Shown in pieces: positions 1 through 20,389 of a stretch of 64,000 bases of DNA; positions within the stretch are counted from its first letter, which is position 1, and each line of letters opens with the position of its first letter. Position numbers and translations under genes: made by a program. The notes below the pieces were generated by a model. It was not told the origin of the DNA, ran no database searches, and was given only the letters and a program-made list of their open reading frames with translations. The stretch comes from Candidatus Binatia bacterium (GTDB taxonomy: Bacteria; Desulfobacterota; Binatia; UBA1149; CAITLU01), in NCBI GenBank assembly GCA_047611725.1, contig JBLFWR010000003.1, forward strand, positions 18,779 through 82,778, given 5' to 3'.

Positions 1-638
1 GCGCATGGAACGACCTTGGTCGAGCCCGCGCAGTTCTCGAAGCCGTGGTCTCGTTCGAGGCCGAAATCTCAGTGGTCGCAACCCGTGGCCTGAATGGATC
101 GGTCTCCCTCTACGATCCGTTCCTGAACCACCACGCCAACCATATTCTCGACGTCACCATCTCGCCCGCCCCCATTTCGGAAGCCACGGGTATCCAGGCA
201 GCGGCCATCGCGCGTAGCGTCCTGGAGGGATACGAGGTCGTAGGCGTTGTCTGCGTAGAGATGTTTTTGCTCCCAGGTGGCGGATTGGTCGTCAACGAAA
301 TCGCCCCTCGCCCCCACAATTCCGGCCACATCACGATCGACGCGCACACGACCAGCCAATTTGAACAGCAGGTGCGGGCGATCTGTGGATTGCCTCTCGG
401 AGCCTCCACCCGGCGGGCACCAGCAGCAGCGATGGCGAATCTTCTTGGTGACTTATGGTCCAATGGTGAACCCAACTGGAGCGCAGCCCTGAGTGACCCC
501 GACCTGCGGTTACACCTGTACGGAAAAGACGGGGCACGCCCTGGACGAAAGATGGGACACCTGTCGATCGCCGCCGCCGATCCCGCGATTGCCGAAGAGC
601 GGATTCGTCGCGCGCGTCAGGCTCTGAGCCGGCCCTAA
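1..638 (+). CDS. purK: N5-carboxyaminoimidazole ribonucleotide synthase, C-terminal part (5' end lies outside the window)
   Basis: The open frame runs from the window edge. The ATP-grasp C-terminal motifs EAEISVVATRG, NEIAPRPHNSGH and GRKMGHL are typical of PurK. Confidence 0.85.
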   Translation, partial: AWNDLGRARAVLEAVVSFEAEISVVATRGLNGSVSLYDPFLNHHANHILDVTISPAPISEATGIQAAAIARSVLEGYEVVGVVCVEMFLLPGGGLVVNEIAPRPHNSGHITIDAHTTSQFEQQVRAICGLPLGASTRRAPAAAMANLLGDLWSNGEPNWSAALSDPDLRLHLYGKDGARPGRKMGHLSIAAADPAIAEERIRRARQALSRP

Positions 639-695
639 GAACCTGCCCGCCGACTTTCTGCGTTTTTCTGAATTGAGTCCCGCCCCAACGAAAAA

Positions 696-745
696 CGACC
701 GACTCTCACTCCCGTTGCTCCGGAGTGTGAGTCGGCCATTATCGT
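696..745 (-). terminator. Rho-independent terminator of outer-membrane paralogue 1
   Basis: GC-rich hairpin (ccgactctcactcc...ggagtgtgagtcgg) followed by a T-run on the minus strand, just 3' of CDS 792..1451. Confidence 0.6.
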
Positions 746-791
746 TTGAACGCAAGCCGCAGCGCTAACTACGACTTAAACGTGTTCGCTT

Positions 792-1451
792 CTAGAAGCG
801 GTACATCAGACCCAGGCTGAGTGCGATGGCGTTCAAGTCTTCGAGATCCCCAGTCGGGATCAAGTAGGTCGCATCGCCGGTCACAGCAATATTCTCGGTC
901 ACGTAGACATCGGTACCGAGGCCTACACGTCCGAGGAACTCTTCTGTGCTGCCGCTACCGGAAACGTCTACATCCGCCGACATTAGGCCGACACCCAGCA
1001 ACAGGTAGGGCTGAATACAGCCGGTCATTGCATACAACTTAGCGTTCGCGGTCAGTGCCCAAGCCTCATCAACCTCAGCAATGTCACTAGACTTCGAGAA
1101 GTCGTCAAACCATTCGTACTCGATCTCAGCAGCAACGTTGGGGTGAAAACGGTAGCCAACACGAGCATTGAAGCCACCAGTGTCGTCAGCTAATTCGCTG
1201 AACTCTCCGTCGAAATCTTCGAACGCGTAGCTGCCCGCGCCGATCAGGTAGAACCCGTTACGCGCGTAATCCGGACCAGAATCTGGCATCGGCACTGGAA
1301 CAACCGGCGGGGCCGGCATCGGTGCTGGCGGCGGCGCCGGCAACTCGGTCGGTGCTTCGGGCTCGCCGTAGGCACCAGCCGAAGCCACTGAAACTGTTCC
1401 GAACACTGCTACCATCGCGAGTAGCGCCACAAAATATTGCTTCTTCATCAT
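792..1451 (-). CDS. Outer-membrane beta-barrel protein (OmpA-like / OMP_b-brl family), paralogue 1
   Basis: Internal ATG start (MMKKQYF) with a GAGGAG ribosome-binding site. Signal peptide ending in ASA, Pro-rich linker, alternating amphipathic strands and a C-terminal ...MYRF motif with terminal Phe. Confidence 0.8.
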   Translation of the reverse strand: MMKKQYFVALLAMVAVFGTVSVASAGAYGEPEAPTELPAPPPAPMPAPPVVPVPMPDSGPDYARNGFYLIGAGSYAFEDFDGEFSELADDTGGFNARVGYRFHPNVAAEIEYEWFDDFSKSSDIAEVDEAWALTANAKLYAMTGCIQPYLLLGVGLMSADVDVSGSGSTEEFLGRVGLGTDVYVTENIAVTGDATYLIPTGDLEDLNAIALSLGLMYRF

Positions 1452-1499
1452 CAAGCTCCTCAAGGACTCGGTCGAGTCCGGTCCGATTTGGCGGTGGAA

Positions 1500-1600
1500 A
1501 ACCCCGAATCGGAAACTGCGACGCGGCCTACCCCAATGGTGGGCCTCTCCGTTTGCCTCGCAACAAAGGATTCTAACGCTTCGGGGGGTTCGGACAAAGC
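1500..1600 (-). promoter_or_regulatory. Conserved leader/promoter region of outer-membrane paralogue 1 (about 90% identical to 2490..2590)
   Basis: Near-identical block gcgacgcggNctaccccaatggt...cctctccgtttgcctcgcaac...ggattctaacgcttcggggggtt.cggacaaagc upstream of both paralogues. On the minus strand it contains a candidate -35 TTTGTC / -10 TAGAAT pair. Confidence 0.45.
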
Positions 1601-1630
1601 GGGGGAGCACTTTATAGAACGAAAAACGGC

Positions 1631-1680
1631 CGACTCACGCTCCCGGTTGCTCCGGAGCATGAGTCGGCCGTTCTCAATTT
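1631..1680 (-). terminator. Rho-independent terminator of outer-membrane paralogue 2
   Basis: Hairpin cggccgactcacgctcc...ggagcatgagtcggccg plus a T-run on the minus strand. It is homologous to the 696..745 terminator. Confidence 0.6.
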
Positions 1681-1746
1681 CAGTACTGTCAGCAGGCTAG
1701 CTGCCAACAGAACGTGGAGCCTCCGAGAAGGCCCCGCCGCCGCAGA

Positions 1747-2424
1747 CTAGAACCGGTACATAAGACCGAGGCTGAAGGCGATGGCGTTGAAGTTCTCGAT
1801 ATCTCCGGTCGGGAGCAGGTACGTGGCATCACCGGTAACCGCGATATTCTCGGTCACGTAGACGTCAGTGCCCAAACCGAGACGGGCAAGCAATTTCTCC
1901 GTGTCGCGGCCGCCGGCCGCGACCACATTGTCAGCCCCGCCGATTGGATCCTCGTTGACCGAAAGCATGCCCGCACCAATTAGAAGGTACGGCTGGACAC
2001 AGCCGGTCATTGCAAAGATTTTTGCGTTGGCCGTCAGCGCCCAAGCTTCGATATCCGGGTCGTCTGATTTCGAAAAGTCATCGAACGACTCGAACTGAAC
2101 TTCAACGGCAACTCGGTCGTTGACGCGCTTACCCGCACGGACATTGAAACCAAAAGTGTCGTCGCCAACATCTTTGAAATCTCCGCTGAACTGTTCCAAC
2201 GCGTAGCTACCCGCACCAATGAGGTAGCGACCTGGTCGTGAGTAGTTGGCAGCAGGCGCAGCTACGACCGGAGGCGTCGGAACTACCGGCGGCGCTGGTG
2301 GTGGGGCGGCCGGCAACTCGGTGGGTTGATCGGCGTCGCCATACGCGCCTGCCGAAGCGAGCGAAACACTTCCAAAAATCGCCACTATCGCGACAAGCGC
2401 CACAAAATATTGCTTCTTCATCAT
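1747..2424 (-). CDS. Outer-membrane beta-barrel protein, paralogue 2 (tandem duplicate)
   Basis: Same signal peptide (MMKKQYFVALVAIVAIFGSVSLASA) and the same C-terminal ...LGLMYRF as paralogue 1. Start placed at the internal ATG. Confidence 0.8.
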   Translation of the reverse strand: MMKKQYFVALVAIVAIFGSVSLASAGAYGDADQPTELPAAPPPAPPVVPTPPVVAAPAANYSRPGRYLIGAGSYALEQFSGDFKDVGDDTFGFNVRAGKRVNDRVAVEVQFESFDDFSKSDDPDIEAWALTANAKIFAMTGCVQPYLLIGAGMLSVNEDPIGGADNVVAAGGRDTEKLLARLGLGTDVYVTENIAVTGDATYLLPTGDIENFNAIAFSLGLMYRF

Positions 2425-2489
2425 CAAGCCTCTCCTGTTCGGACTCCCTTGGAGTCCATTCCGAATGATCGGTGGAAGCCGCCGATGCT

Positions 2490-2590
2490 CGGGATATGCG
2501 ACGCGGTCTACCCCAATGGTCGACCTCTCCGTTTGCCTCGCAACCGTGGATTCTAACGCTTCGGGGGGTTGCGGACAAAGCCGAACCCGC
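2490..2590 (-). promoter_or_regulatory. Conserved leader/promoter region of outer-membrane paralogue 2
   Basis: See 1500..1600. Confidence 0.45.
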
Positions 2591-2617
2591 ATTTGGCGGT
2601 GGAAGCGAGATTTCCCT

Positions 2618-3499
2618 TCATAAACCGACAGCAGACAGGTCCAGCCGACCGCCTTGTGTGGGAGGGCACCACAGTGCGGCCGAGGTCAATGGTCTCGTGA
2701 AACGAAACAGTCCGTCGACGACTCCGTCATCAGCACCAACCATCTTGGCCAGCAAAGCTTCGAACGCGTCCAGGCTGTGGCCAAAGGCAACAAACACCAA
2801 CCCGTGAGCCTCGCCATCCACCCACGGCATAGAGCGCCGCAGAACAAAGGCCGGCGGGTCAAACGTCTCCTGCGCCGTTCGTTTGACGTGGGCAGACGCG
2901 GGCGCATCAGACAGCTCCTCATTGTCGGCCAGGGCCCGGCCGATGATGAGGTCGCCAGCTTTCTCTCCCAGACCCCGAAAACGGTCCAGATCGTGGTGCC
3001 ATACTTGAACAGCGACGAAGCTGGCGCCGTCCAGCCCCTCTCCCCGACCGCTCACGAAGGCAGCCGCTAGCGCGTCCTTGCCCGTCGGATTCTCGGTGCC
3101 GTCCTCATAGCCGCTCAAATCGCGTCCCCCGCTGTATTCGAACGAGTCCACGGTAGCGGTAACCCGAAAAGCTGGCGCCAGCACGCGCGTGAAAGTTCGT
3201 CCGCGGTGAAACAACTCGCCGCGGTCGGTACCGCGCAGCCAAAGCCAAAGCGCTGTCGGCGTTGTGGGCACGACGGCTCCTGCGCCCGCGTGCGCTGGGA
3301 GTTCGTGAAGGCCAGCAATCTCGCAACCGAGCCGAGCCACGGTGGAAGCCCCCAAACCTACGACTGTCGCCGCCCCATCCACCAGCGTAGCCAAGCTGCG
3401 CAGCACGGGCCCCGGATCAGCATCCGCCAGCAAGTCGAAAAACAAGTAACGTCCGTGCGACGGGATGCCGTCGAGAATCCCCATTTGTGGTTCGCTCAT
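2618..3499 (-). CDS. Dye-decolorizing (DyP-type) peroxidase
   Basis: Motif GYEDGTENP (the DyP GxxDG motif) and overall DyP-like composition. ATG start confirmed. Confidence 0.85.
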   Translation of the reverse strand: MSEPQMGILDGIPSHGRYLFFDLLADADPGPVLRSLATLVDGAATVVGLGASTVARLGCEIAGLHELPAHAGAGAVVPTTPTALWLWLRGTDRGELFHRGRTFTRVLAPAFRVTATVDSFEYSGGRDLSGYEDGTENPTGKDALAAAFVSGRGEGLDGASFVAVQVWHHDLDRFRGLGEKAGDLIIGRALADNEELSDAPASAHVKRTAQETFDPPAFVLRRSMPWVDGEAHGLVFVAFGHSLDAFEALLAKMVGADDGVVDGLFRFTRPLTSAALWCPPTQGGRLDLSAVGL

Positions 3500-8960: not shown

Positions 8961-9467
8961 TTAGCGCGGCGGACGATACGGCTTCTTCAGCTTGGGTTCT
9001 ACGCCAGCGTCGATCCATTGCTGGACCCAACCGTTTCCAGCTTCCGGATAGGAGTCGATTCCCGCCAAATACGGTTTGATATCGAAAATCGGCGTGCCAT
9101 CGAGAAGATCAACCCCGTCAACCGTGACAACCCCCGCATCGACATCAACCGACCGCATCGCGACATTGGTCATTCCGATTTGGGAGGGACGATTGGGAGC
9201 ACGGGTTGCGAGCACGCCGCGCCGCGGACCACCGCGTGGGGGTTTTACTCGCGGGGCCCAGCCCGAGCTTCTATCAAAGAGGAAAAGCAGCCAGATTCGC
9301 GCAAACGAATCCAGATCAGCCAGTGCGGGTCGTACGTCAAGATCGATGTCGATGAACCCACGCGCGCCTTCATCATCAGGGGGTTGGTGCGGGGTGTCTT
9401 CCCGGCGGGTCCACGGCGTGCGGATCGTACCGATCGTACGGATTTCAAAATCGTTGCGCTGCGCCAT
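8961..9467 (-). CDS. tRNA methyltransferase TrmO/TsaA (YaeB) family protein
   Basis: IGTIRTPW, SHIWLLFLF and RSP.RPN.IGM motifs typical of the TsaA-like fold. Confidence 0.75.
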   Translation of the reverse strand: MAQRNDFEIRTIGTIRTPWTRREDTPHQPPDDEGARGFIDIDLDVRPALADLDSFARIWLLFLFDRSSGWAPRVKPPRGGPRRGVLATRAPNRPSQIGMTNVAMRSVDVDAGVVTVDGVDLLDGTPIFDIKPYLAGIDSYPEAGNGWVQQWIDAGVEPKLKKPYRPPR

Positions 9468-9666
9468 AGCCTGCCTAATCCCGCATAACCCTGTTCAACT
9501 CGGCCGGATCCAGACGGGTTCCGGGCGGCCATTGATCGCACGACCAATCCCCATTGGCGACCTACTGTCTCCCGCAGCCGCCGCGCAACGGCTCGTTGAC
9601 TCCCCGCCACTACCGACGCAAGCGTGGGCAAGACGGCGCGCAGACCGCGCGGGAAGGAGACAAGAC

Positions 9667-10575
9667 ATGCCGCGTATCCATAGCAACGGAATCGAGTTGG
9701 AATACGACACCTTTGGGAGTCCAAGCGACGAGCCATTGGTTCTCGTCATGGGCTTGGGCGCACAGATGATTTTGTGGGACGAAGCGTTTTGCGCAGAACT
9801 CGTCGAGCGCGGGTTCTTCGTGGTTCGCTTCGACAATCGCGACATCGGCCTGTCCACACATCTTCATGACCTGCCAAGCCCCAACCTGATACAGGTCGTG
9901 GCAGCAGCTTTGACTGGCAGGAAATTCAAGGCTCCCTACCTGCTTCGCGATATGGCGGCCGACACGGCTGGCCTGATCCGCGCGCTCGGTCTGGATTCGG
10001 CTCACGTTGTCGGCGCATCAATGGGTGGAATGATTGCGCAAACGCTTGCGGTCCAACATCCGACGCTAGTTCGATCGCTGACATCGATTATGTCCACACC
10101 GGGTGACGCCGACCTTCCTCGCCCTACTACTCGCGCGCTCACCGCACTGGCACGGCCTATCCCGCGCGCGAGAGACAAAGCGATCGAGCGCACGGTCAAA
10201 CTTTTTCGCACAATTGGAAGCCCGGGCTTTCCGTTTGAAGAAGACCTGGTCCGCGATGTCGCCACTCGTTCTTTCGATCGCTCCTTCGATCGAAAAGGAG
10301 TCGCACGACAAATGGCGGCCATCATCGCCTCGGGCGGACGACGCGCGGTGCTAGCCGCAGTCAATGCACCAACATTGGTCATTCACGGCGACGCCGACCC
10401 ACTAGTGCCACCGCAATGCGGTGTGGCTACGGCCGACGCGATCCGAGAAGCCGAACTCTTGATGATCAACGGAATGGGGCACGATCTGCCCCGTGCAAAA
10501 TGGAAGACCATGATCGATGGCATTGCGGGTCTCACCGAGCGTTACCATAAGGGCAACGCGCAGCGATCTGGCTAA
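9667..10575 (+). CDS. Alpha/beta hydrolase
   Basis: Internal ATG with a GGAAGGAGA ribosome-binding site. HVVGASMGG nucleophile elbow and a C-terminal HGDAD...GHD motif. The upstream 590 nt of the ORF is treated as a non-coding extension. Confidence 0.75.
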   Translation: MPRIHSNGIELEYDTFGSPSDEPLVLVMGLGAQMILWDEAFCAELVERGFFVVRFDNRDIGLSTHLHDLPSPNLIQVVAAALTGRKFKAPYLLRDMAADTAGLIRALGLDSAHVVGASMGGMIAQTLAVQHPTLVRSLTSIMSTPGDADLPRPTTRALTALARPIPRARDKAIERTVKLFRTIGSPGFPFEEDLVRDVATRSFDRSFDRKGVARQMAAIIASGGRRAVLAAVNAPTLVIHGDADPLVPPQCGVATADAIREAELLMINGMGHDLPRAKWKTMIDGIAGLTERYHKGNAQRSG

Positions 10576-10685
10576 ACTTCAGTTCAGAGAACACATAGAA
10601 AAGCGCTCGAGCCTTAAACGAAAACGGGCCGCCCACCAAATGGTGAGCGGCCCAATTTTCTTGCGAAACGTGCTTAGCGATCAGC

Positions 10686-12659
10686 TCAGGGAGCGCAAAC
10701 CACTTCACCTACGCCACAAGGACACACGGTCTCGATCGGACACACAACGGTGCCGTCGTTGTTGTACGGGTCGTTTCCAGCTCCGCCATCCGGATCGAAT
10801 TGGCAGGAACCACTGTCCGGACACTCGACATCCGACGTACAAGTTCCACCAGGGTTCGATCCACCCTGACAGGTATTGACGAGATCGCAGTCACCGCCGT
10901 CACTACAGTCAACGTCGATCCAGCTCGGATCGCCCGCGATCATCGCGTCAACCCAGCTGTCCAGGGTCGGCACACCGTCGGTGGTATCGGTGAAGATCTT
11001 GTCGCTTCCCCATACCGTGTGACGCGAACCCGCGCCCGTGTAAGAGCGGAAGTTATCCGTGGCCGAATTCGCAGCAGAAATGTCACTGACGAAGTCACGC
11101 ATACACGCGCTCCATTCGCAGGTGTTCTGCCACCAGTTCCCCCACTCCGCGATGTCGTTGATATTGGGGAACTTCATCACGTTGTAGAATGCCGACTGGC
11201 CGCCACCGCTACCGTCATACGCGCTTTGGTACTGCGCGAATCGGTGCTGCGGGAACGCCTCTGCAATACGGATCCACATTTCGGGGCTTGAAAGCTCGAC
11301 GGCCGAGTCGACACCCAGAACTTTCGGAAGCACGCTGTCCACGCCCCACTCGGCGATGCTGTTATCCAACCATTCCTGAGTGATAACGCCGGTCCCGGCG
11401 TCGCCGAGAACGTTGTGCGTAACCGAGGGGTAGACAACTTCCATCAAGTTAATTGAGTTCATGATCGCACCGTAAGAGCCGGCGCTCGAACCCGTGGAGA
11501 AAACCTCTTCGGGATCAACAAAACGCTCGCGTGCCCACTTCTCGGCCAAGCGTGCATGTTGAAAACCGCGGTGGAAGGTTAGGCCACCGTTTGGGTAGGT
11601 GGTCGTTCGATTACCCCAGTGCACGTCGCCTGAGCAATACGACACAAACACTACGTGCCAATCTTTGAATTGGTTATCGATGTGCTGTGACGCGTAGCCG
11701 GTACCGGCAATATCGGGATTGTCACCCGCGCCGGTTTCCGCCTTCATCGTGTTGGCGATGTAGCAGGTTCCCGTGCTCCAACATGCGCCACCACCTTGGT
11801 AGTACATGAGAAGCTTGTTCACAGTGCCCTTCTTGTAGTGGAACGAGTAAGGGGTGTCTTTCACGCAGCGGGGCTTTAACAGTAGCTTCTCGTACTGCAC
11901 AGTTGTCTCGCCCCAGCTTTCCTCACCGGAACCTGGCGTACCTTCCACGACGTGGGTGAACACGAACGGTGCGTCGGGCGCGATGACCGTGGAGAGCCGA
12001 ACCCCCTCGACCAAGCCTTCCAGAGCGGCCTGGGCAGAAACAACATCGGGCTGCCCCGCTACGCATTTCGGTTCAGCCTTACCGAACGCCACTGTAAACT
12101 TGTCTTGGGCTTTGACCAGTGAGGCCGCTTTGCGGCTGCGATCGGTATCCTTGACTGGAGCCTTGATGAATTTGGATTCCACTTTGAGAATCCCACCGCA
12201 AAACTTGGCAGCCGCCGAGAACAACCCGGCCCGGCATTTACGATCGTCGGAATCGTTGTTGTCGACCCCGTTGTTGACGGTGTCTGAAATCCCGCCAATC
12301 CCGCCAGCCAGCAGTGCCACTGCCGCCGCCGAGTCGACAGTGGCGAGACTGCAGTCTACGCCTTTCTTCGTAGACCTGGCCTCTTCCTTGGCCCATGTGT
12401 CCGTCAACTTGTCGGCGGCTTTGGCAATCGCCGCGTCGCGGTTGGTTCCGCCGGAATCCTTGGACGGGGCTTTCGCGTACTTTGACCAGGCTTTCAGAGC
12501 GCTTTGGCAATACTTGCTGGCGGCCTTTTGCTTACCAGACACACATTTATTTGTAGGATAGACGCCGGCTTCGGCATCGGTCGTGGTCGCCACCGTAAAG
12601 GCGGCGATCATGGCTACTGCAACAGTTCCTGCGCAGAGCGCAGACGCGGATCGCTTCAT
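10686..12659 (-). CDS. Secreted pectin-acetylesterase/Notum-like (PAE family) esterase with N-terminal Lys/Cys-rich tandem repeats and a Cys-rich C-terminal module
   Basis: Signal peptide. Two repeats of about 75 aa (KC..GK...K[YF]C...LK..SK[YF].KAP.KD...). PAE motifs YQGGGACW, SYCSGD and GSSAGS. C-terminal CSDGGDCDLVNTCQGG...CPCG. Confidence 0.65.
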   Translation of the reverse strand: MKRSASALCAGTVAVAMIAAFTVATTTDAEAGVYPTNKCVSGKQKAASKYCQSALKAWSKYAKAPSKDSGGTNRDAAIAKAADKLTDTWAKEEARSTKKGVDCSLATVDSAAAVALLAGGIGGISDTVNNGVDNNDSDDRKCRAGLFSAAAKFCGGILKVESKFIKAPVKDTDRSRKAASLVKAQDKFTVAFGKAEPKCVAGQPDVVSAQAALEGLVEGVRLSTVIAPDAPFVFTHVVEGTPGSGEESWGETTVQYEKLLLKPRCVKDTPYSFHYKKGTVNKLLMYYQGGGACWSTGTCYIANTMKAETGAGDNPDIAGTGYASQHIDNQFKDWHVVFVSYCSGDVHWGNRTTTYPNGGLTFHRGFQHARLAEKWARERFVDPEEVFSTGSSAGSYGAIMNSINLMEVVYPSVTHNVLGDAGTGVITQEWLDNSIAEWGVDSVLPKVLGVDSAVELSSPEMWIRIAEAFPQHRFAQYQSAYDGSGGGQSAFYNVMKFPNINDIAEWGNWWQNTCEWSACMRDFVSDISAANSATDNFRSYTGAGSRHTVWGSDKIFTDTTDGVPTLDSWVDAMIAGDPSWIDVDCSDGGDCDLVNTCQGGSNPGGTCTSDVECPDSGSCQFDPDGGAGNDPYNNDGTVVCPIETVCPCGVGEVVCAP

Positions 12660-12896
12660 ATGGTTCTCCCCAAGTTGAAATCCATCCCTCCAGCCAGAAG
12701 GCAGTGGCGTGACTGCGCCCCTGGGCGCACCGCGTCAAAAGTAAGGGTTCGGATCGTCGATCAATAGTAAGTTTGGAGCGTACGGATCTGTCAGTAGTAA
12801 AGTCAAGGTAGCGCCGGACTCAAAGGGTTCTGGCGCGTAAACAGTCGGCACCTACCTCGCCACCCCGCTTCCCCTCGACAGTCACGCCGTACCTTA

Positions 12897-12971: not shown

Positions 12972-14171
12972 ATGTCTTCCGCCCCTTACGCCATCGTCAC
13001 GTCTGATGCCCATGCTGGAGCCAGTATCGTGGCTTACCGCGATTACCTCGATCAGAAACATCAGCGAATCTTCGATGAACGGCGCGGCACCTACGCCAAC
13101 CCGCAGCGCAAACACATCGGTTCGAAAAAACACAAGAATTGGGACGACGCCGAACGTCTAGCCGACATGGATCGTGAGGGGGTAGCTGGGGAAATCATCT
13201 ACCCCAACACCGTGCCCCCGTTTTTCCGCACCTCGGTTCTAATTTGCGGCAACCCGAGCACCGAGAACTACCCACTTTGGTTGGAGGGAATTCGCGCCCA
13301 TAACCGCTGGCTCCTGGATTTTCAGAACCAGCATCCCGACCGTCGAGCCGGTGTCGGCATCGTCTACCTGAACGATATCGACGAGGCGATAAAAGACGTG
13401 GAATGGATCGCGAAGAACGGGCTCAAGGGCGGCATCTTGCTGCCCCAGGTCCCAGACGACTGTACCCATATTCTTCCGCTGTACTCGCCCGAGTACGATC
13501 GTTTTTGGAAGGTCTGCGAAGATACCGGCGTCGTGCTCAACCATCATGGCGGCACCGGCTCTCCCGACTACGGGCGGTATCCGATTTCTTTGCCGATCCG
13601 GATGCTTGAGACCCCGTTCTTTTCAACACGTAGCTTTGCTCACCTTTTACTTGGCGGTGTATTCCATCGCTTCCCCAAGTTGCGTTACATCGTGACCGAA
13701 GCGGGTTGCGGCTGGGTTCCACAGGCGCTGGAGCAAATTGATCGGGTCTGGGGGTTCGTCAAGCAGGGGTTTGTCGGCGAGTTCCAGTTCGACGCGGATT
13801 CAATTACTCCCGAGTCGCCAAGCTTCTACGCCAAGCGCAACGTGTGGTACGGCGCCAGCGCAGCATCACCGTCAGAGATACGCGACCGTCACGCGGTCGG
13901 CGTGGATAGGATTTGCTGGGGCAGTGACTATCCGCACTACGAAGGGACGTATCCGCATACACGCCTGTCTTTGCGGCACACGTTCAATGACGTACCAGAA
14001 GAAGAAACCCGTTCGATGCTGGGAACCAATGCGGCGAAGCTCTACGGCTTTGATCTGGAAAAACTCGCGCCGCTTGTCGCACGGATCGGCCCCGTTCCGT
14101 GTGACGTTAGCGTGCCGTTAGCCCCCGGAGAGATCCCCACTGACACCATGTCCATGGCCTTCTCGCGTTGA
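12972..14171 (+). CDS. Amidohydrolase family protein (amidohydrolase_2 / ACMSD-like)
   Basis: GAGGAAA ribosome-binding site plus ATG. Metal-dependent hydrolase TIM-barrel motifs (ICWGSDYPH). Confidence 0.75.
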   Translation: MSSAPYAIVTSDAHAGASIVAYRDYLDQKHQRIFDERRGTYANPQRKHIGSKKHKNWDDAERLADMDREGVAGEIIYPNTVPPFFRTSVLICGNPSTENYPLWLEGIRAHNRWLLDFQNQHPDRRAGVGIVYLNDIDEAIKDVEWIAKNGLKGGILLPQVPDDCTHILPLYSPEYDRFWKVCEDTGVVLNHHGGTGSPDYGRYPISLPIRMLETPFFSTRSFAHLLLGGVFHRFPKLRYIVTEAGCGWVPQALEQIDRVWGFVKQGFVGEFQFDADSITPESPSFYAKRNVWYGASAASPSEIRDRHAVGVDRICWGSDYPHYEGTYPHTRLSLRHTFNDVPEEETRSMLGTNAAKLYGFDLEKLAPLVARIGPVPCDVSVPLAPGEIPTDTMSMAFSR

Positions 14172-15842
14172 CGCGTCGAAGGCCTGCGCGCGTTCATCCG
14201 TAGGCCACGGTTGCCATTGGCGCATGCGCGAAATCTCGACTTGGCCTCGGTCAAGTTCGCCGCGTACCGCGTCGTAAATAACCCAGGCCATCGAGCGTCC
14301 GGCCATCGGTTGCGATTCCACCGTAACCACGCGTAGCTCGCCTTCTTCGAAATCACACTGCTCTTGAATCGCGCGTAGAAGCTGCGGCCCATGCAGGTGA
14401 CCGTCGCCGAAGTTCCAGCCAAGCGCCAGACCCGCGATCAACTCACCGTCCATCCATTCATACGCTTCGATATCGTCGACGGCTTTCGGAATGGCCTCGT
14501 GCAGCACGCGCCCCTGCAAATGCAGTAATCTAAACGTGGGCGTCATCATCATCGCCGCGTCAACCTCATCTTCGTTGTCGATGAGACGAGCCAACTGATC
14601 CCGCATCAGGGGAGCCACCTTTACGAGGCGGTCGAGTTTTCGAATGCTATCGCCGCGAAACAGCCACACGCTGTACGCCCAATTTCCGGCGTAGTAGCGC
14701 ATCGCCATGAGGAAAGAGACACGCGAAGGCACAAAGTTTCCAAACAGCGGAACGGCGAAGAGCATCGCGAACAGGAACACTCCAAGAACCGGGGCTTGGG
14801 TTATGGCTGCAATGCTCGCCTCAGCGTGACGGCCGAAAAGAAACGCACCACCGAAAACCATCGCTACGTTCCATTCTATCGGCATCCCCATGGGTAGGTT
14901 GCCCGCAATGAAGCAGTGAAACGAAATCATGACGGCCAGGGCAACAAATGTAACTGTCCCGCCATTGCCTGCGAGCAAAACAAGCGGGAACCCGTACTCG
15001 ACCAAAGTTCCCATGTGGGCCAAACCTTCAGCGACCCGCGAGGGCCTCAAGTCGTTCGGGTACCCCTCATAGAGCGCTTCGCGTAGCCGCTGCGGCACGA
15101 ACGGACTGTTCGTGAGCATCACGCAAATCACCGACGGGAAGTGAGAGTTCAGTTTCGACGTCGCGGCCCAGAACCAGATTGCAAGCCACACCAGCTTGCA
15201 GCCCGCGATCCAAACGCCGCTCGTAGGCGCAAATGCCAGACACACTGCCGCAACCCAATAGTGTTCGGAACGAGCAGCCAAAAAGATCGTCTTGTCGGTC
15301 AACCCCAATATCGGAACGAGCACCGCGATCGGCACCACCAGGGCGCTCGTGATTTCTGGTGCAACCAAAGCGCGAAGAATCAAAACTAGCGTGGCCGCGT
15401 AAAGCGCGACATCAAGCGGCGTTCGGCGAATCCCACCGAATACGGGTAGTCCCGGAACGAGCGCGAGCTTCGTCGTTCCTGGCCGCAAAAAATGCAGCGC
15501 GCCGCCAATGGGCGGAATAAAGCGCCCTGTCAGCGGCCCCGTCGAACAACCCAGCCCAAAGCCCTCGTAGAACAGTGACCAAAGCACCGCCTTCTGAAAC
15601 GCCGTCGCCGTTAGAGCCCATCCTGGAAACGTGGTGATCGATCCGAACCCCGGGGTCAGTGAGCAGAAAAACCACCACCCACCGACGTACAGAAAAGAGA
15701 TTTTGAAAATATAGAGGGCGTAAACGGCCGGTGGCGTAGCGGTGGTCCGAAACAGCCATGTGCGGCACAACAATCGGATACGTTCGGTGAACGGGGCCGC
15801 GCGCAGGCGGGCGATATCGTAGGGAGGCAGATCGTCGTGCAT
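14118..15842 (-). CDS. Polytopic membrane protein, probably DUF3556 family
   Basis: About 10 predicted transmembrane segments followed by a soluble C-terminal domain. The length and layout resemble DUF3556. It converges on the amidohydrolase gene with a 54-nt overlap. Confidence 0.5.
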   Translation of the reverse strand: MHDDLPPYDIARLRAAPFTERIRLLCRTWLFRTTATPPAVYALYIFKISFLYVGGWWFFCSLTPGFGSITTFPGWALTATAFQKAVLWSLFYEGFGLGCSTGPLTGRFIPPIGGALHFLRPGTTKLALVPGLPVFGGIRRTPLDVALYAATLVLILRALVAPEITSALVVPIAVLVPILGLTDKTIFLAARSEHYWVAAVCLAFAPTSGVWIAGCKLVWLAIWFWAATSKLNSHFPSVICVMLTNSPFVPQRLREALYEGYPNDLRPSRVAEGLAHMGTLVEYGFPLVLLAGNGGTVTFVALAVMISFHCFIAGNLPMGMPIEWNVAMVFGGAFLFGRHAEASIAAITQAPVLGVFLFAMLFAVPLFGNFVPSRVSFLMAMRYYAGNWAYSVWLFRGDSIRKLDRLVKVAPLMRDQLARLIDNEDEVDAAMMMTPTFRLLHLQGRVLHEAIPKAVDDIEAYEWMDGELIAGLALGWNFGDGHLHGPQLLRAIQEQCDFEEGELRVVTVESQPMAGRSMAWVIYDAVRGELDRGQVEISRMRQWQPWPTDERAQAFDASTREGHGHGVSGDLSGG

Positions 15843-16886: not shown

Positions 16887-18086
16887 CTAGTCCAAAAAGT
16901 CTCCATCCTTTAACCGCTGGGGTACATACTTTTCGGTAACGTAGGAAATATCCTTTGAGATCAGCGCTTCGACTTCCAGCTTGAAGCCGTTCTTGAGCAT
17001 CAACTGGATTTCGCGCTGCCACTCCCGCTTGTTGGCGAACCACGGGTAAGCCGCGATCTGCTTCGCGCGTTTAATGTCGTTGTCGTTGAGGTCAATCGTT
17101 ACCGACGGAGTTAACTCGCAGGCAGTGTAGTCCTTGCTGCGAAGACCGATGAAGCGGGCATCGGGAATCGCCATACGCTGCGATTCATAGGCCAAATTAA
17201 TCGACCCCTGCTTGAGCACCGAATAGATGTAGTACCCCCAAGGGTCGTTATCGAGCAGGCAATACACCGGTAGTTTCAGCTCGTTGTGCAAGCGGTACAG
17301 CATGCGGCGCACCCCGCGCGGAGGTTGGCCACCACCGTGGGTAAGAATGCACTTGTGGGTGCGCCAAAACTTATCTTCGTTAAAGCGCTGCCAAACAGTG
17401 TCCTTTTCGACGTGCAAGACGAACTTCGCATCGCAGCGCCCAAACTCGATCACGTCGGGCTCCACGATCGATGGAATCCCATAGCCGCCCGATCCCATAT
17501 GTGCACAGTCAATTACGTCGCCATTGTCGGTCAACGTAATTTCACCGACCATGTCGCCCTTCTTCTGAGCGTAGAGATGCAACTGTTCGCGCAGGGCGTT
17601 TAGGGTGACTTCAATGTCCTCAATGATCGGATCGCAATCACCCTGGTCATCGAACGTCTCTTCCTTGGTGCCCGGGATGGTGTGCTTGAGAAGATAGTAC
17701 AGACCACGAATCGATGTGGTCTTGCCCTCGTCAATCAGCTGCTTGCAGCCCGAGCCGACCAGCACCGACTGCATGTAGCTCTTGGCCTGCGAGAGATTGA
17801 ACAACTCGCGCCGATTGGTGCCTGTGCCCATTTCGATGAAGCGCTTGCGCTTGTTGTAACTTACGTTGGACAAGGAGCGAGAAGGAATCTCCAAGTGCGG
17901 CGTGCGGCGTTTGGAGGCCGCGGTGACCACGGAATCGGCCAAGCCTCTTAGTGACGCAAGCGTGCGTTGATCGACCTCGTTCCGCGCAGCGGCCAGTGCC
18001 GCGTTCTTGGCCGCTCGTGCAGCCTCCGCCTTGGCCGCAGCTTTCGTCGAGCCAGTTTTTTTCTTGCCGGTCGCCATCGAAATCAC
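16887..18086 (-). CDS. top6A: DNA topoisomerase VI subunit A (Spo11/Top6A family)
   Basis: Toprim and CAP motifs FVLHVEKD, LLDNDPWGYYIYSV and SINLAYESQRMAIPDARFIGL align closely with archaeal Top6A. The start overlaps the top6B stop by 4 nt. Confidence 0.9.
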   Translation of the reverse strand: MISMATGKKKTGSTKAAAKAEAARAAKNAALAAARNEVDQRTLASLRGLADSVVTAASKRRTPHLEIPSRSLSNVSYNKRKRFIEMGTGTNRRELFNLSQAKSYMQSVLVGSGCKQLIDEGKTTSIRGLYYLLKHTIPGTKEETFDDQGDCDPIIEDIEVTLNALREQLHLYAQKKGDMVGEITLTDNGDVIDCAHMGSGGYGIPSIVEPDVIEFGRCDAKFVLHVEKDTVWQRFNEDKFWRTHKCILTHGGGQPPRGVRRMLYRLHNELKLPVYCLLDNDPWGYYIYSVLKQGSINLAYESQRMAIPDARFIGLRSKDYTACELTPSVTIDLNDNDIKRAKQIAAYPWFANKREWQREIQLMLKNGFKLEVEALISKDISYVTEKYVPQRLKDGDFLD

Positions 18087-20389
18087 ACCAGGCGGAGCTG
18101 TTCGCCCGCCCTACCCTTGGCCGCGTTCTTAACCGCGGGGCCTTTCTTTGCCGTTTGTTTCTTCTTGGTCGTCTTCTTGGTTGGTTTTGCCGCGATTTTT
18201 TTCTTCGGCGATTTCTTCGAAGACTTCTTCGACACCTTCTTGGCGACCTTCTTGGCGACCTGAGCGACTTCCTTCGGTTTCGCCTTGGCGCGCTTCTTCG
18301 GCGCCTTTGTCGCTCTGACCCGGGGAGTCCGCACGCCGCCGTTCGTTGCGGGCCCGGCGTCACCACCATCGAGACGATCGCCAGTAACAACGGCTCCTGC
18401 ATCATCGACAATCAGAACGTTGTCCCCGTAGAATTCTTCTTCGCCTTCTTCTATGCGCTTGCCGGCATCGTCCATTTTCAGGTCGGCTTCGGCTGTCTTT
18501 CGCTGTGCGACTTCAAGAAGTTGCTCATAGACGACTTCCGGATCGGCCTGGTTCAGCTTACCAACAGCGGTCGCGACTTCGCCGAGATAGCGAAGAAAAA
18601 TACTACGACGCTCACCTTCCTGCTTAACACGACGACGACGACGCAAGTAAATTGACAACTTGCGTCCCACAGCCTGGAGCGCGAGTCGCAGTTCCTTTTC
18701 GATTTCGGGGTATGAGGCGACCGCCTCTTTCGATTCGCTGGTAAAAGGCACCCACACGCTACCCATGTGAACAACGATAGAAATCGGACCACCCGGGAGT
18801 TGCCCACGTGACTGCGTCAGACCATACGCACGCCAGTTGGTCTTCATCACGGCCTTAGTAATCGCACAGCCGCCGGCTTGGAACTGCAGCGGGACACGAT
18901 TGGCATAGCGCATGACCTGCATGCCCTGACCATCGGAGACGGTGACCGATTGCATGGCCTCAAAAAGTTTTTCGAGGCAAACGTCATCGACTTTCGATGG
19001 CGACTGACGAGCCGTGAAGCCTGCTGCCTTCAAAATCCGGTCGGCGCTATCGGGGCCCAGCCCATCGAACGAATTGACCAAGAACTGGCGCATGCTGCGA
19101 GCGTCACTTTCAGCCAAAACCTCGCGCAGCCCATCGAGCGAAACCTTCTCAACCGGGCTGCCACCACCAAACGCCAACGCGACCTCAATCTGGAACGGGT
19201 TGCCGCGATACACCGAAGGTGGCCGCGTAGAGGCAACATAAAACTCAGCGGGGACAACTTGATGGAGTCCCGCGAGCAGCAGCGGTTCTCCTATCGGCGA
19301 GATACAGTCGGTCGAGGGCGCAGAGATTTTGGTAGATTGCAGCGAACTATGGAGACGGTCGGCTTCGTCGCGACCAATACGCTTTGTGGACGCGCGAGAG
19401 GAAAGCTTTGCGGACTTGCAAACTTTGCTGGCTATGCCGGGACTGACGCGTGAAAAACTTTTAGTGAGAAACTGCGACAAGGTCTGCCCCTGCGCATCTT
19501 TCAACATCGTGATGAGACGGCCGAGTTCTACACCATAGGGATGGGGCTTGATCTCTTTCGCTTCCGGCGGAAGTTCAAATGTGGAGCGCCGGTATGTGTG
19601 CTGATTATCGTCGGGGTCGTGATAGTGGAGCGTCGCGTGCGGATTCGTGATCGCGGTTTGCTCCAAATACTCGTCAACGCTGCCGCGACCGCGTTTGTAT
19701 CGTGCTTCCAACTCGATCGTCACACGCGTGCCGCTTTTCACTTCCTGCGGCGCGGCACCTTCTTCGTCGGGATCGTAGTGGCTGTCCCACGCGATTCCGT
19801 GTTCGGCCATGTAGGCGCGACCCTTTTCGCCGGGCGCGATGTCGAGACCATTGCCGCGTCCGTTGTGAATTTCGGGCTTGTTGTTCTTCGTGTCGATCTC
19901 CACCTCATAATAATGAACAGGAGTTCGAATCGAGAGTTTGGAGACGATCTTGACTGGCTTGCCGGTCGTGAGCTTGCCGTACATGCCAGCCGCGCTGATA
20001 CCGATGCCCTGCTGGCCACGACTCATACGCAAGCGATGAAATTTGGAGCCGTACAGCAGCTTGCCGAAAATCAACGGAATCTGCTTTTTAACGATACCGG
20101 GGCCGTTGTCCTGGACGGAAACACGGAACCGGTCTTGGGTGGTTCGCTCGATGGCCACCCAGATTTCGGGAACGATGCCCGCTTCCTCACAGGCGTCTAG
20201 CGAGTTGTCGACGGCTTCCTTGACGGTAGTCAGAAGGGCCTTGCGCAGATTGTCGAAGCCGAGCAGGTGACGGTTCTTCGCAAAGAACTCACTGACCGAG
20301 ATCTCGCGCTGCGCCGCCGCCATCGACTGGGCGGTCGCATTCTTACGAGCCTTGGGCTTCCTAGTTGATCCGGCGCTCCGCGTCCCCAC
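18083..20389 (-). CDS. top6B: DNA topoisomerase VI subunit B (GHKL ATPase) with a lysine-rich histone-H1-like C-terminal tail
   Basis: EFFAKNRHLLGF, Bergerat N-box EAVDNSLDA, VQDNGPGI, KPHPYGV and RYANRVPL all match Top6B. GTG start with a GGAGAGGAAG ribosome-binding site. The C-terminal 70 aa is KK(x)-rich. Confidence 0.9.
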   Translation of the reverse strand: MGTRSAGSTRKPKARKNATAQSMAAAQREISVSEFFAKNRHLLGFDNLRKALLTTVKEAVDNSLDACEEAGIVPEIWVAIERTTQDRFRVSVQDNGPGIVKKQIPLIFGKLLYGSKFHRLRMSRGQQGIGISAAGMYGKLTTGKPVKIVSKLSIRTPVHYYEVEIDTKNNKPEIHNGRGNGLDIAPGEKGRAYMAEHGIAWDSHYDPDEEGAAPQEVKSGTRVTIELEARYKRGRGSVDEYLEQTAITNPHATLHYHDPDDNQHTYRRSTFELPPEAKEIKPHPYGVELGRLITMLKDAQGQTLSQFLTKSFSRVSPGIASKVCKSAKLSSRASTKRIGRDEADRLHSSLQSTKISAPSTDCISPIGEPLLLAGLHQVVPAEFYVASTRPPSVYRGNPFQIEVALAFGGGSPVEKVSLDGLREVLAESDARSMRQFLVNSFDGLGPDSADRILKAAGFTARQSPSKVDDVCLEKLFEAMQSVTVSDGQGMQVMRYANRVPLQFQAGGCAITKAVMKTNWRAYGLTQSRGQLPGGPISIVVHMGSVWVPFTSESKEAVASYPEIEKELRLALQAVGRKLSIYLRRRRRVKQEGERRSIFLRYLGEVATAVGKLNQADPEVVYEQLLEVAQRKTAEADLKMDDAGKRIEEGEEEFYGDNVLIVDDAGAVVTGDRLDGGDAGPATNGGVRTPRVRATKAPKKRAKAKPKEVAQVAKKVAKKVSKKSSKKSPKKKIAAKPTKKTTKKKQTAKKGPAVKNAAKGRAGEQLRLV

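Follow-up and report, generated by a model that had tools for sequence, protein, structure and literature searches.

The 64,000-nucleotide stretch of Candidatus Binatia contig JBLFWR010000003.1 analysed here (the window) carries, at positions 10686–12659 of its minus strand, a 657-amino-acid (aa) open reading frame (ORF), and the question it raises is what kind of enzyme this is and what the unfamiliar sequences on either side of its catalytic domain are. A preliminary description of this DNA had proposed a secreted esterase of the pectin acetylesterase (PAE)/Notum type with repeats at its N-terminus and a Cys-rich tail, and the ORF and all of the motifs it quoted are found where it placed them. 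We find that the protein belongs to a known esterase family and is typical of a bacterial branch of it that is uncharacterised. What is new lies mainly in the N-terminal repeats, which form an unannotated, mobile and probably disulfide-bonded helical domain shared with many secreted proteins.

The catalytic domain belongs to the PAE/Notum family

Family membership was assessed by profile, by sequence and by fold. The domain concerned is:
10914–11975, minus strand: PAE/Notum-type alpha/beta-hydrolase domain, aa 229–582 (PF03283; NOTUM by sequence and fold)

The Pfam PAE profile (PF03283) matches aa 264–423, scoring 52.6 bits where the curated cutoff is 26.6 (E=4.9e-14), over profile positions 23–187 of 355, and the isolated catalytic domain scores 55.3 bits. 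Among PDB sequences NOTUM is the only genuine relative, with E=4.9e-5 in a single-sequence phmmer search and E=2e-11 when a 36-sequence family profile is used, while no NCBIfam model matches the full-length esterase. A full-length AlphaFold2 (AF2) model built on the family alignment reached a predicted local distance difference test score (pLDDT) of 88.7 and a predicted template modelling score (pTM) of 0.89. When the PDB was searched with Foldseek, the best 50 matches were all Notum (E ~2e-8, ~16% identity, template modelling (TM) scores of 0.55–0.62 normalised to Notum), and since these matches span 340–380 aligned columns, the whole catalytic domain has the Notum fold. The esterase is thus a member of the PAE/Notum (CE13-type) family, as the preliminary description had it, and no unrelated hydrolase family emerged.

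The family motifs lie at aa 287–294 (YQGGGACW), 340–345 (SYCSGD) and 390–395 (GSSAGS), and three codons specify the candidate catalytic residues:
11484–11486, minus strand: Ser392 codon, nucleophile in G-S-S-A-G (aligned to Notum Ser232)
11214–11216, minus strand: Asp482 codon, predicted acid in A-Y-D-G-x-G-G-x-Q (by motif; after strand 473–479)
11019–11021, minus strand: His547 codon, predicted base in G-S-R-H-T (by invariance; after strand 537–542)

Notum residue numbers were obtained by index mapping of the phmmer alignment (index 155 + 77 = residue 232). By this mapping S392 in G390-S-S392-A-G394 aligns to Notum S232 in GSS(A)AG, and C265, C293, C299 and C342 all align to Notum Cys. The catalytic acid of Notum is D340 in the motif D340xxQ343, which is equivalent to NxayDxwQ of plant PAE (PMC5465549). 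The putative acid motif of the window protein, A480-Y-D482-G-S-G-G-G-Q488, comes right after predicted strand 473–479, with an Asp-to-Gln spacing of D+6 as against D+3 in Notum. D420, which the phmmer alignment had offered as the acid, was rejected in favour of D482, index mapping showing it to be the counterpart of Notum D264. H547, the putative counterpart of Notum H389, is invariant and follows strand 537–542; its SRHT surroundings are unlike the HCQ of the plant enzymes, and it is placed by invariance and strand order only. The plant PAE motifs GGxwC, nWN, rYCDg, GCSxG and NxayDxwQ all have correspondents here.

Conservation was then read across 36 diverse homologs. S392, D482, Q488, H547, GGGACW and YC..D are invariant in 36/36, and D333-W-(N/H), G289-G-G-A-C293-W and Y341-C342-x-x-D345 are invariant or nearly so. 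S392/D482/H547 is accordingly the predicted catalytic triad, and the invariance of Ser, Asp, His, the Gln, the oxyanion loop and the other motifs argues that this is a bona fide, almost certainly active serine esterase of the PAE/Notum family.

The N-terminal repeats are predicted to form one six-helix domain

The region between the signal peptide and the catalytic domain consists of two repeats:
12267–12560, minus strand: module repeat 1, aa 34–131, three helices with Cys39, Cys51 and Cys103 (BLASTP, AF2, hhalign)
11976–12251, minus strand: module repeat 2, aa 137–228, three helices with Cys142, Cys154 and Cys199 (BLASTP, AF2, hhalign)

In BLASTP, aa 38–124 and 141–220 are 36% identical over 87 aa (E=1e-15), and the repeat-versus-repeat match keeps E=9e-10 after composition correction against a 120-protein set. 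Profiles of the two repeats built from 24 homologs align in hhalign with a probability of 99% (E=8.9e-18, 83 columns). The internal repeat is therefore real, far beyond chance. Its length had been put at roughly 75 aa in the preliminary description, which was right about the tandem arrangement and too short on the unit; the period is ~100 aa (C39–C142 and C51–C154 are each 103 aa apart), with ~85 alignable residues. Structure prediction of the repeats, which the same description had suggested, gives a single compact six-helix domain when the ~190-aa module is modelled alone (pLDDT 92.1, pTM 0.89).

The Cys pattern suggests how this domain is held together. Cys39 and Cys103 are nearly universal in the family, and C51 and C154 come and go together, with both present in 149 proteins, one or the other in 2+2 and neither in 14 (Fisher p=1.6e-16, uncorrected for phylogeny). 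Their joint gain and loss points to an inter-repeat disulfide in addition to one intra-repeat disulfide per repeat, so that the module is probably stapled by C39–C103, C142–C199 and the inter-repeat pair C51–C154.

The repeats had been described as belonging to no recognisable family, and this held in every search made. They have no Pfam match even at E<=10, and no NCBIfam match falls over the module in ten other module-bearing proteins. The best Foldseek match of the module in the PDB has E=0.58, so no significant fold relative was found there, and the module profile picked up among PDB sequences only a myosin/EB1 coiled-coil chimera (E=0.004), which was treated as compositional noise.

The module is mobile among secreted proteins

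A search for the module in other proteins was made with its profile against 1.84 billion representative proteins, giving 603 matches at E<=1e-3 and 220 at E<=1e-10. Most of these are PAE-family proteins in which the module directly follows the signal peptide. Among the 150 matches listed, however, about 20 lack a PAE domain and have the module, complete with both repeats, in a C-terminal position. Its partners in these proteins include matrixin-type Peptidase_M10, leucine-rich repeats (LRR) with TSP_3 (thrombospondin-type-3), Kre9_KNH Ig-like domains, CrtC lipocalin, LVIVD beta-propeller repeats and Lcl_C. P0222 and P0251 have TIGR04393 T5SS/PEP-CTERM-associated passenger repeats and, after them, the helical module where an autotransporter barrel or PEP-CTERM anchor would usually be; in P0248 the module is followed by a dockerin; and one arylsulfatase bears it N-terminally, like the esterase. 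Thirteen Lys/Arg positions, spaced i/i+4/i+7, are kept at >=60% in both the N- and the C-terminal versions of the module. A word-indexed search with a profile of the C-terminal type returned only 7 matches, all unnamed.

These results show that the module is autonomous and mobile among secreted proteins, and that it is a previously undescribed, unannotated domain. Its conserved residues would fit a binding or retention function that does not depend on the cargo, with an anionic partner, and its presence at the position where TIGR04393 proteins usually carry their anchor supports retention.

The C-terminal tail is Cys-rich and probably a structural decoration

The Cys-rich tail reported earlier is likewise present, with 10 Cys in its 75 residues:
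10689–10913, minus strand: Cys-rich tail, aa 583–657, 10 Cys, with mini-motif CQGGSNPGGTCTSDVECPDSGSC and terminal CPC...C (BLAST, alignment)

The stretch CSDGGDCDLVNTCQGG occupies aa 585–600 and CPCGVGEVVC aa 646–655. Together with the tail's 10 Cys, and with Cys514 and Cys519 included, the mature protein has 22 Cys, an even number and enough for 11 disulfides. BLAST detects the tail in 61 of the 120 homologs listed. Homologs with the terminal CPC...C segment always have Cys519 and those without it never do, a pattern suggesting a disulfide staple between the tail and the catalytic domain. The core of the tail, C-x-G-G-x-N-x-G-x-x-C-x4-D-C-x-G-G-x-C, is duplicated in some homologs, and a Cys-rich insertion of 25–35 aa with the same type of motif occurs in the catalytic-domain loop between GGGACW and DNP (P0014, P0025, P0055, and P0015 at aa 321). 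An unrelated Cys-rich ORF adjoining one homolog (locus L048, ~1–1637, minus strand) contains at least 4 copies of the core motif, indicating that it is a portable mini-repeat in these lineages. The tail has no Pfam family match at E<=10 and is regarded as a clade-specific structural decoration.

The architecture is the norm in a sizeable bacterial family

A word-indexed search with the esterase found at least 216 clusters at E<=1e-3. All 120 of the clusters listed are PF03283-positive. Apart from two truncated entries of 403 and 468 aa, they are 578–728 aa long and cover >=85% of the query, the overall range of coverage being 60–100%. The name 'pectin acetylesterase-family hydrolase' is given to several, which come from metagenome-assembled genomes (MAGs) of Candidatus Binatia, Limnocylindrales, Dormibacteraeota and Actinobacteria. 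By BLAST, repeat 1 is detected in 115 and repeat 2 in 91 of the 120 listed homologs. When GTDB was scanned with each species represented by one genome, 153 stretches had relatives. The best 80 of these 153 loci all belong to organisms that are uncultivated, most of them bearing the label Binatia, 'delta proteobacterium', Myxococcales or Myxococcota.

The size of this family and the domains its members share make the architecture the norm of a sizeable unstudied family and not a peculiarity of the window. The interpretation in the preliminary description is supported, with the qualification that the combination of accessory domains and esterase is standard in a family of at least 216 clusters. 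The same clusters show that calling the family mainly plant and animal understates its bacterial members.

Two observations concern individual members. NCBI already has an identical protein, entered as hypothetical and assigned to a MAG with the label Hyphomicrobiaceae bacterium, whereas nearly all named relatives are in Binatia, Deltaproteobacteria or Myxococcota MAGs; the label reflects either taxonomic mislabelling or horizontal transfer. In a UBP10 MAG (locus L012), two PAE-family genes stand in tandem (2–1243 and 1541–3343, both plus strand), and the upstream copy has the Cys-rich motif.

Gene signals and surroundings

The following features frame the gene:
12665–12671, minus strand: Shine-Dalgarno (SD) sequence GGGGAGA (core GGAG), with a 6-nt spacer to the ATG at 12659 (from sequence)
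12567–12659, minus strand: predicted signal peptide, aa 1–31 (sequence, homolog alignment, pLDDT <50 for aa 1–30)
10625–10654, minus strand: terminator-like hairpin with a 13-bp stem (10 GC pairs), followed by TTTTCGTTT (T-run)

The signal peptide consists of MKRS, a hydrophobic core and then AEA before G, and the junction A-x-A/G-x-YPTN-x-C (slash, predicted cleavage) is kept in homologs in the family alignment. Judged from these sequence features, the esterase would be exported by Sec and cleaved after AEA. The hairpin lies ~30 nt past the stop codon. The downstream neighbour is a convergent alpha/beta hydrolase and the upstream neighbour a divergent Amidohydro_2 gene; with an SD sequence and a terminator of its own between such neighbours, the esterase gene is monocistronic. 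The window contains no second copy of the helical module, the esterase or the Cys motif.

Other genes of the window are noted here for completeness. The mechanically called ORF at 9076–10575 (plus strand) is over-extended and overlaps a TrmO gene of the opposite strand; its Abhydrolase_1 part begins near 9676. Two genes upstream of the esterase, 14118–15842 (minus strand) encodes a 574-aa DUF3556 transmembrane protein (E=1.8e-170); this gene adjoins a PqiA-like gene, and its pairing with the esterase is not kept at the homolog loci. Topoisomerase VI is mainly archaeal and plant. In the window, which comes from a bacterial MAG, the genes for its two subunits adjoin: subunit A at 16887–18086 (minus strand; TP6A_N, Toprim) and subunit B at 18083–20389 (minus strand; Topo-VIb_trans, HATPase_c).

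Proposed function and alternatives

Each of the two characterised branches of the PAE/Notum family consists of secreted enzymes that cleave O-linked acyl groups from extracellular macromolecules: acetyl from pectin in the case of plant PAE, and palmitoleoyl or octanoyl from proteins in that of Notum. By analogy, the window protein would be a Sec-exported, disulfide-stabilised serine carboxylesterase of the PAE/Notum (CE13) type, in which Ser392 of the GSSAG elbow, Asp482 and His547 would act together with an oxyanion hole formed by the GGG(A)C loop. Its substrate would be a macromolecule outside the cell or in the periplasm, probably a polysaccharide, from which it would take off an O-linked acyl group that is most likely acetyl, although the designation of the enzyme as a deacetylase draws on the family name only. 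The module would stand outside catalysis, and its most likely task would be to keep its cargo at, or direct it to, an anionic surface or polymer (the cell envelope or the extracellular matrix, for example), and the tail would be a clade-specific disulfide knot pinned to the catalytic domain. Taken as a whole, this reading of an exported, disulfide-stabilised O-deacylase that the module retains or targets is one on which we are evenly divided. A broader proposal, that the module is a widespread extracellular retention or ligand-binding domain with which uncultivated bacteria hold diverse cargo (esterase, sulfatase, metalloprotease, LRR/adhesin-like and autotransporter-type repeat proteins) on an anionic surface or matrix polymer, and that the esterase is the bacterial equivalent of glycan-tethered Notum, is put forward tentatively as possible though rather doubtful.

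Several results weigh against an anchored glycan deacylase. The PAE and NOTUM sequence matches leave the C-terminal half of the catalytic domain uncovered, and Asp482 and His547 are therefore assigned by motif, invariance and strand order. The net charge of the module, which in the window protein is +10 (versus −19 and −13 for the other two parts), has a median of only +1 to +3 across the family, versus ~−17 for the rest of the protein. A consistently strong positive charge was accordingly given up as a family-wide property, and only the position-specific Lys/Arg conservation holds. No conserved neighbour was found by ORF clustering over 84 loci or in three contexts read closely; with the family's own cluster set aside, the top one (10 loci) proved to be an antisense artefact and was followed by a histidine kinase (7), a cyclase (6) and WS_DGAT (6). 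Literature searches on PAE/Notum homologs of bacteria, on CE13 and on Binatia esterases turned up no bacterial PF03283 protein that has been characterised. To these is added the full-length pTM of 0.89, which in the model would imply that the module has a fixed orientation on the catalytic domain.

That last point bears most directly on the possibility that the module is no generic anchor and is instead a lid or substrate platform, integral to the active site and setting its specificity. Helical caps are common in alpha/beta hydrolases, and PAE-type modules have extra conserved residues (Y34-P-T-N37, R74 and T107) that are absent from the C-terminal type and could form an interface. However, the module folds confidently alone, and it occurs with the same conserved Cys and Lys on unrelated folds and at the opposite terminus. 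Its presence on unrelated proteins argues against a lid, which we consider decidedly unlikely. Those C-terminal modules on non-enzymes (LRR, Ig-like and repeat proteins) count against an intramolecular inhibitor or pro-domain cleaved after export, like the PMEI-like PRO region of plant pectin methylesterases. A disulfide-bonded helical bundle directly after the signal peptide would suit such a role, and the pectin methylesterase inhibitor (PMEI) structures 1x8z and 1xg2_B are among the weak Foldseek matches (TM 0.33–0.35). These matches are insignificant (E ~2, probability 0.2–0.25), though, and without a Pfam match to PMEI (PF04043) at E<=10 this identity for the module was rejected; nor is a conserved processing site evident between the module and the catalytic domain in the family alignment. 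A pro-domain is accordingly very improbable.

The identity of the substrate is contested more seriously. The main rival to acetyl on a glycan, the most likely substrate, is that the same fold and triad act on a longer-chain ester, either removing acyl groups from a lipid or lipidated protein in Notum-like fashion or hydrolysing polyesters or wax esters in the manner of a cutinase. In its favour, the only solved relatives are Notum, a palmitoleoyl/octanoyl O-deacylase. Two proteins, P0171 (ENA, 928 aa) and P0273 (JGI, 938 aa), combine module and PAE domain with a C-terminal PF12740 domain (E=2e-91), which is PET-hydrolase/cutinase-like, and thus have two esterase domains in one secreted protein. 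A WS_DGAT (wax-ester synthase) gene lies within ~4 kb in 6 of the 84 loci, L004 and L045 among them. Yet both copies of the fusion, although from two independent sources, fall into one cluster at 50% identity, and neither the 84 loci nor the window has a PETase-like gene close to a family member, so that a general PETase-like association was discarded as confined to that one cluster. The WS_DGAT linkage covers only those 6 loci and may be shared synteny of related genomes, and the pattern GGG.C, DWN, aYD..Q is at least as plant-PAE-like as Notum-like. We hold a longer-chain substrate to be unlikely but well within consideration. Finally, the protein could be a catalytically dead binding protein. 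Nothing specific favours this beyond a C-terminal half of the catalytic domain too diverged for the PAE profile, and with Ser, Asp, His, the oxyanion loop and the acid-motif Gln invariant in 36/36 homologs, a pseudo-esterase is scarcely credible.

Neither the esterase nor the module overturns current understanding. Because no bacterial PAE/Notum member has apparently been studied, assigning a substrate for the first time would close a gap in the biology of CE13-type esterases and of uncultivated Binatia-like bacteria, and defining the module, at least at the DUF level, would improve the annotation of hundreds of secreted proteins. If the module is an anchoring or binding domain, it would represent a new way for bacteria to retain exoproteins, and the esterase, as an equivalent of glycan-tethered Notum, would then work at the cell surface, editing the acylation of an extracellular macromolecule.

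Comparison with known systems

Notum, the palmitoleoyl-protein carboxylesterase of human and Drosophila (4uyu/4uzl and ~130 other entries), is the only solved sequence relative and the best fold match. The two proteins have in common the nucleophile (S392 = S232), a D..Q acid motif, the GG..C loop, four Cys and, presumably, the catalytic His after the last strand, and the window protein would share with Notum the role of a secreted extracellular O-deacylase. They differ in that identity is only ~16% and the C-terminal halves cannot be aligned by sequence; Notum consists of a single domain, with neither the helical N-terminal module nor the Cys-rich tail; the acid motif of the window protein is longer by three residues, a Gly-rich insertion (YD-GxGGx-Q versus DxxQ); and where Notum has W128 the window protein has Ala292. 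Sulfated glycans hold Notum at the cell surface, a functional parallel to the anchoring proposed here.

Plant pectin acetylesterases (CE13, PF03283; AtPAE8/9) belong to the same Pfam family and are likewise secreted by way of a signal peptide. They share C.DG/P.Y, GGxwC, nWN, rYCDg, GCSxG, NxayDxwQ and, presumably, the catalytic His with the window protein, but they are single-domain proteins of ~400 aa, and their HCQ His motif is replaced here by (S/T)RHT. No pectinolytic genes lie near the esterase among its window neighbours or at the 84 homolog loci. The bacterial proteins annotated as 'pectin acetylesterase-family hydrolase' in Candidatus Binatia, Limnocylindria, Dormibacteraeota and related MAGs have the same full architecture at 36–72% identity and are the esterase's own family; the accessory domains of these automatically annotated proteins carry no annotation.

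The module itself can be likened to PEP-CTERM, the T5SS translocator, MYXO-CTERM and dockerin by function only, since it has no sequence or fold kinship to a known anchor in Pfam, NCBIfam, the PDB or Foldseek. Like those anchors, it stands C-terminally after TIGR04393 repeats, proteases, LRR and Ig-like passengers. Unlike them, it is predicted to be a 190-aa soluble, disulfide-bonded six-helix bundle, and not a transmembrane helix with a sorting motif or a beta-barrel; it also occurs N-terminally, on PAE proteins and a sulfatase, and in one case (P0248) it is itself followed by a dockerin.

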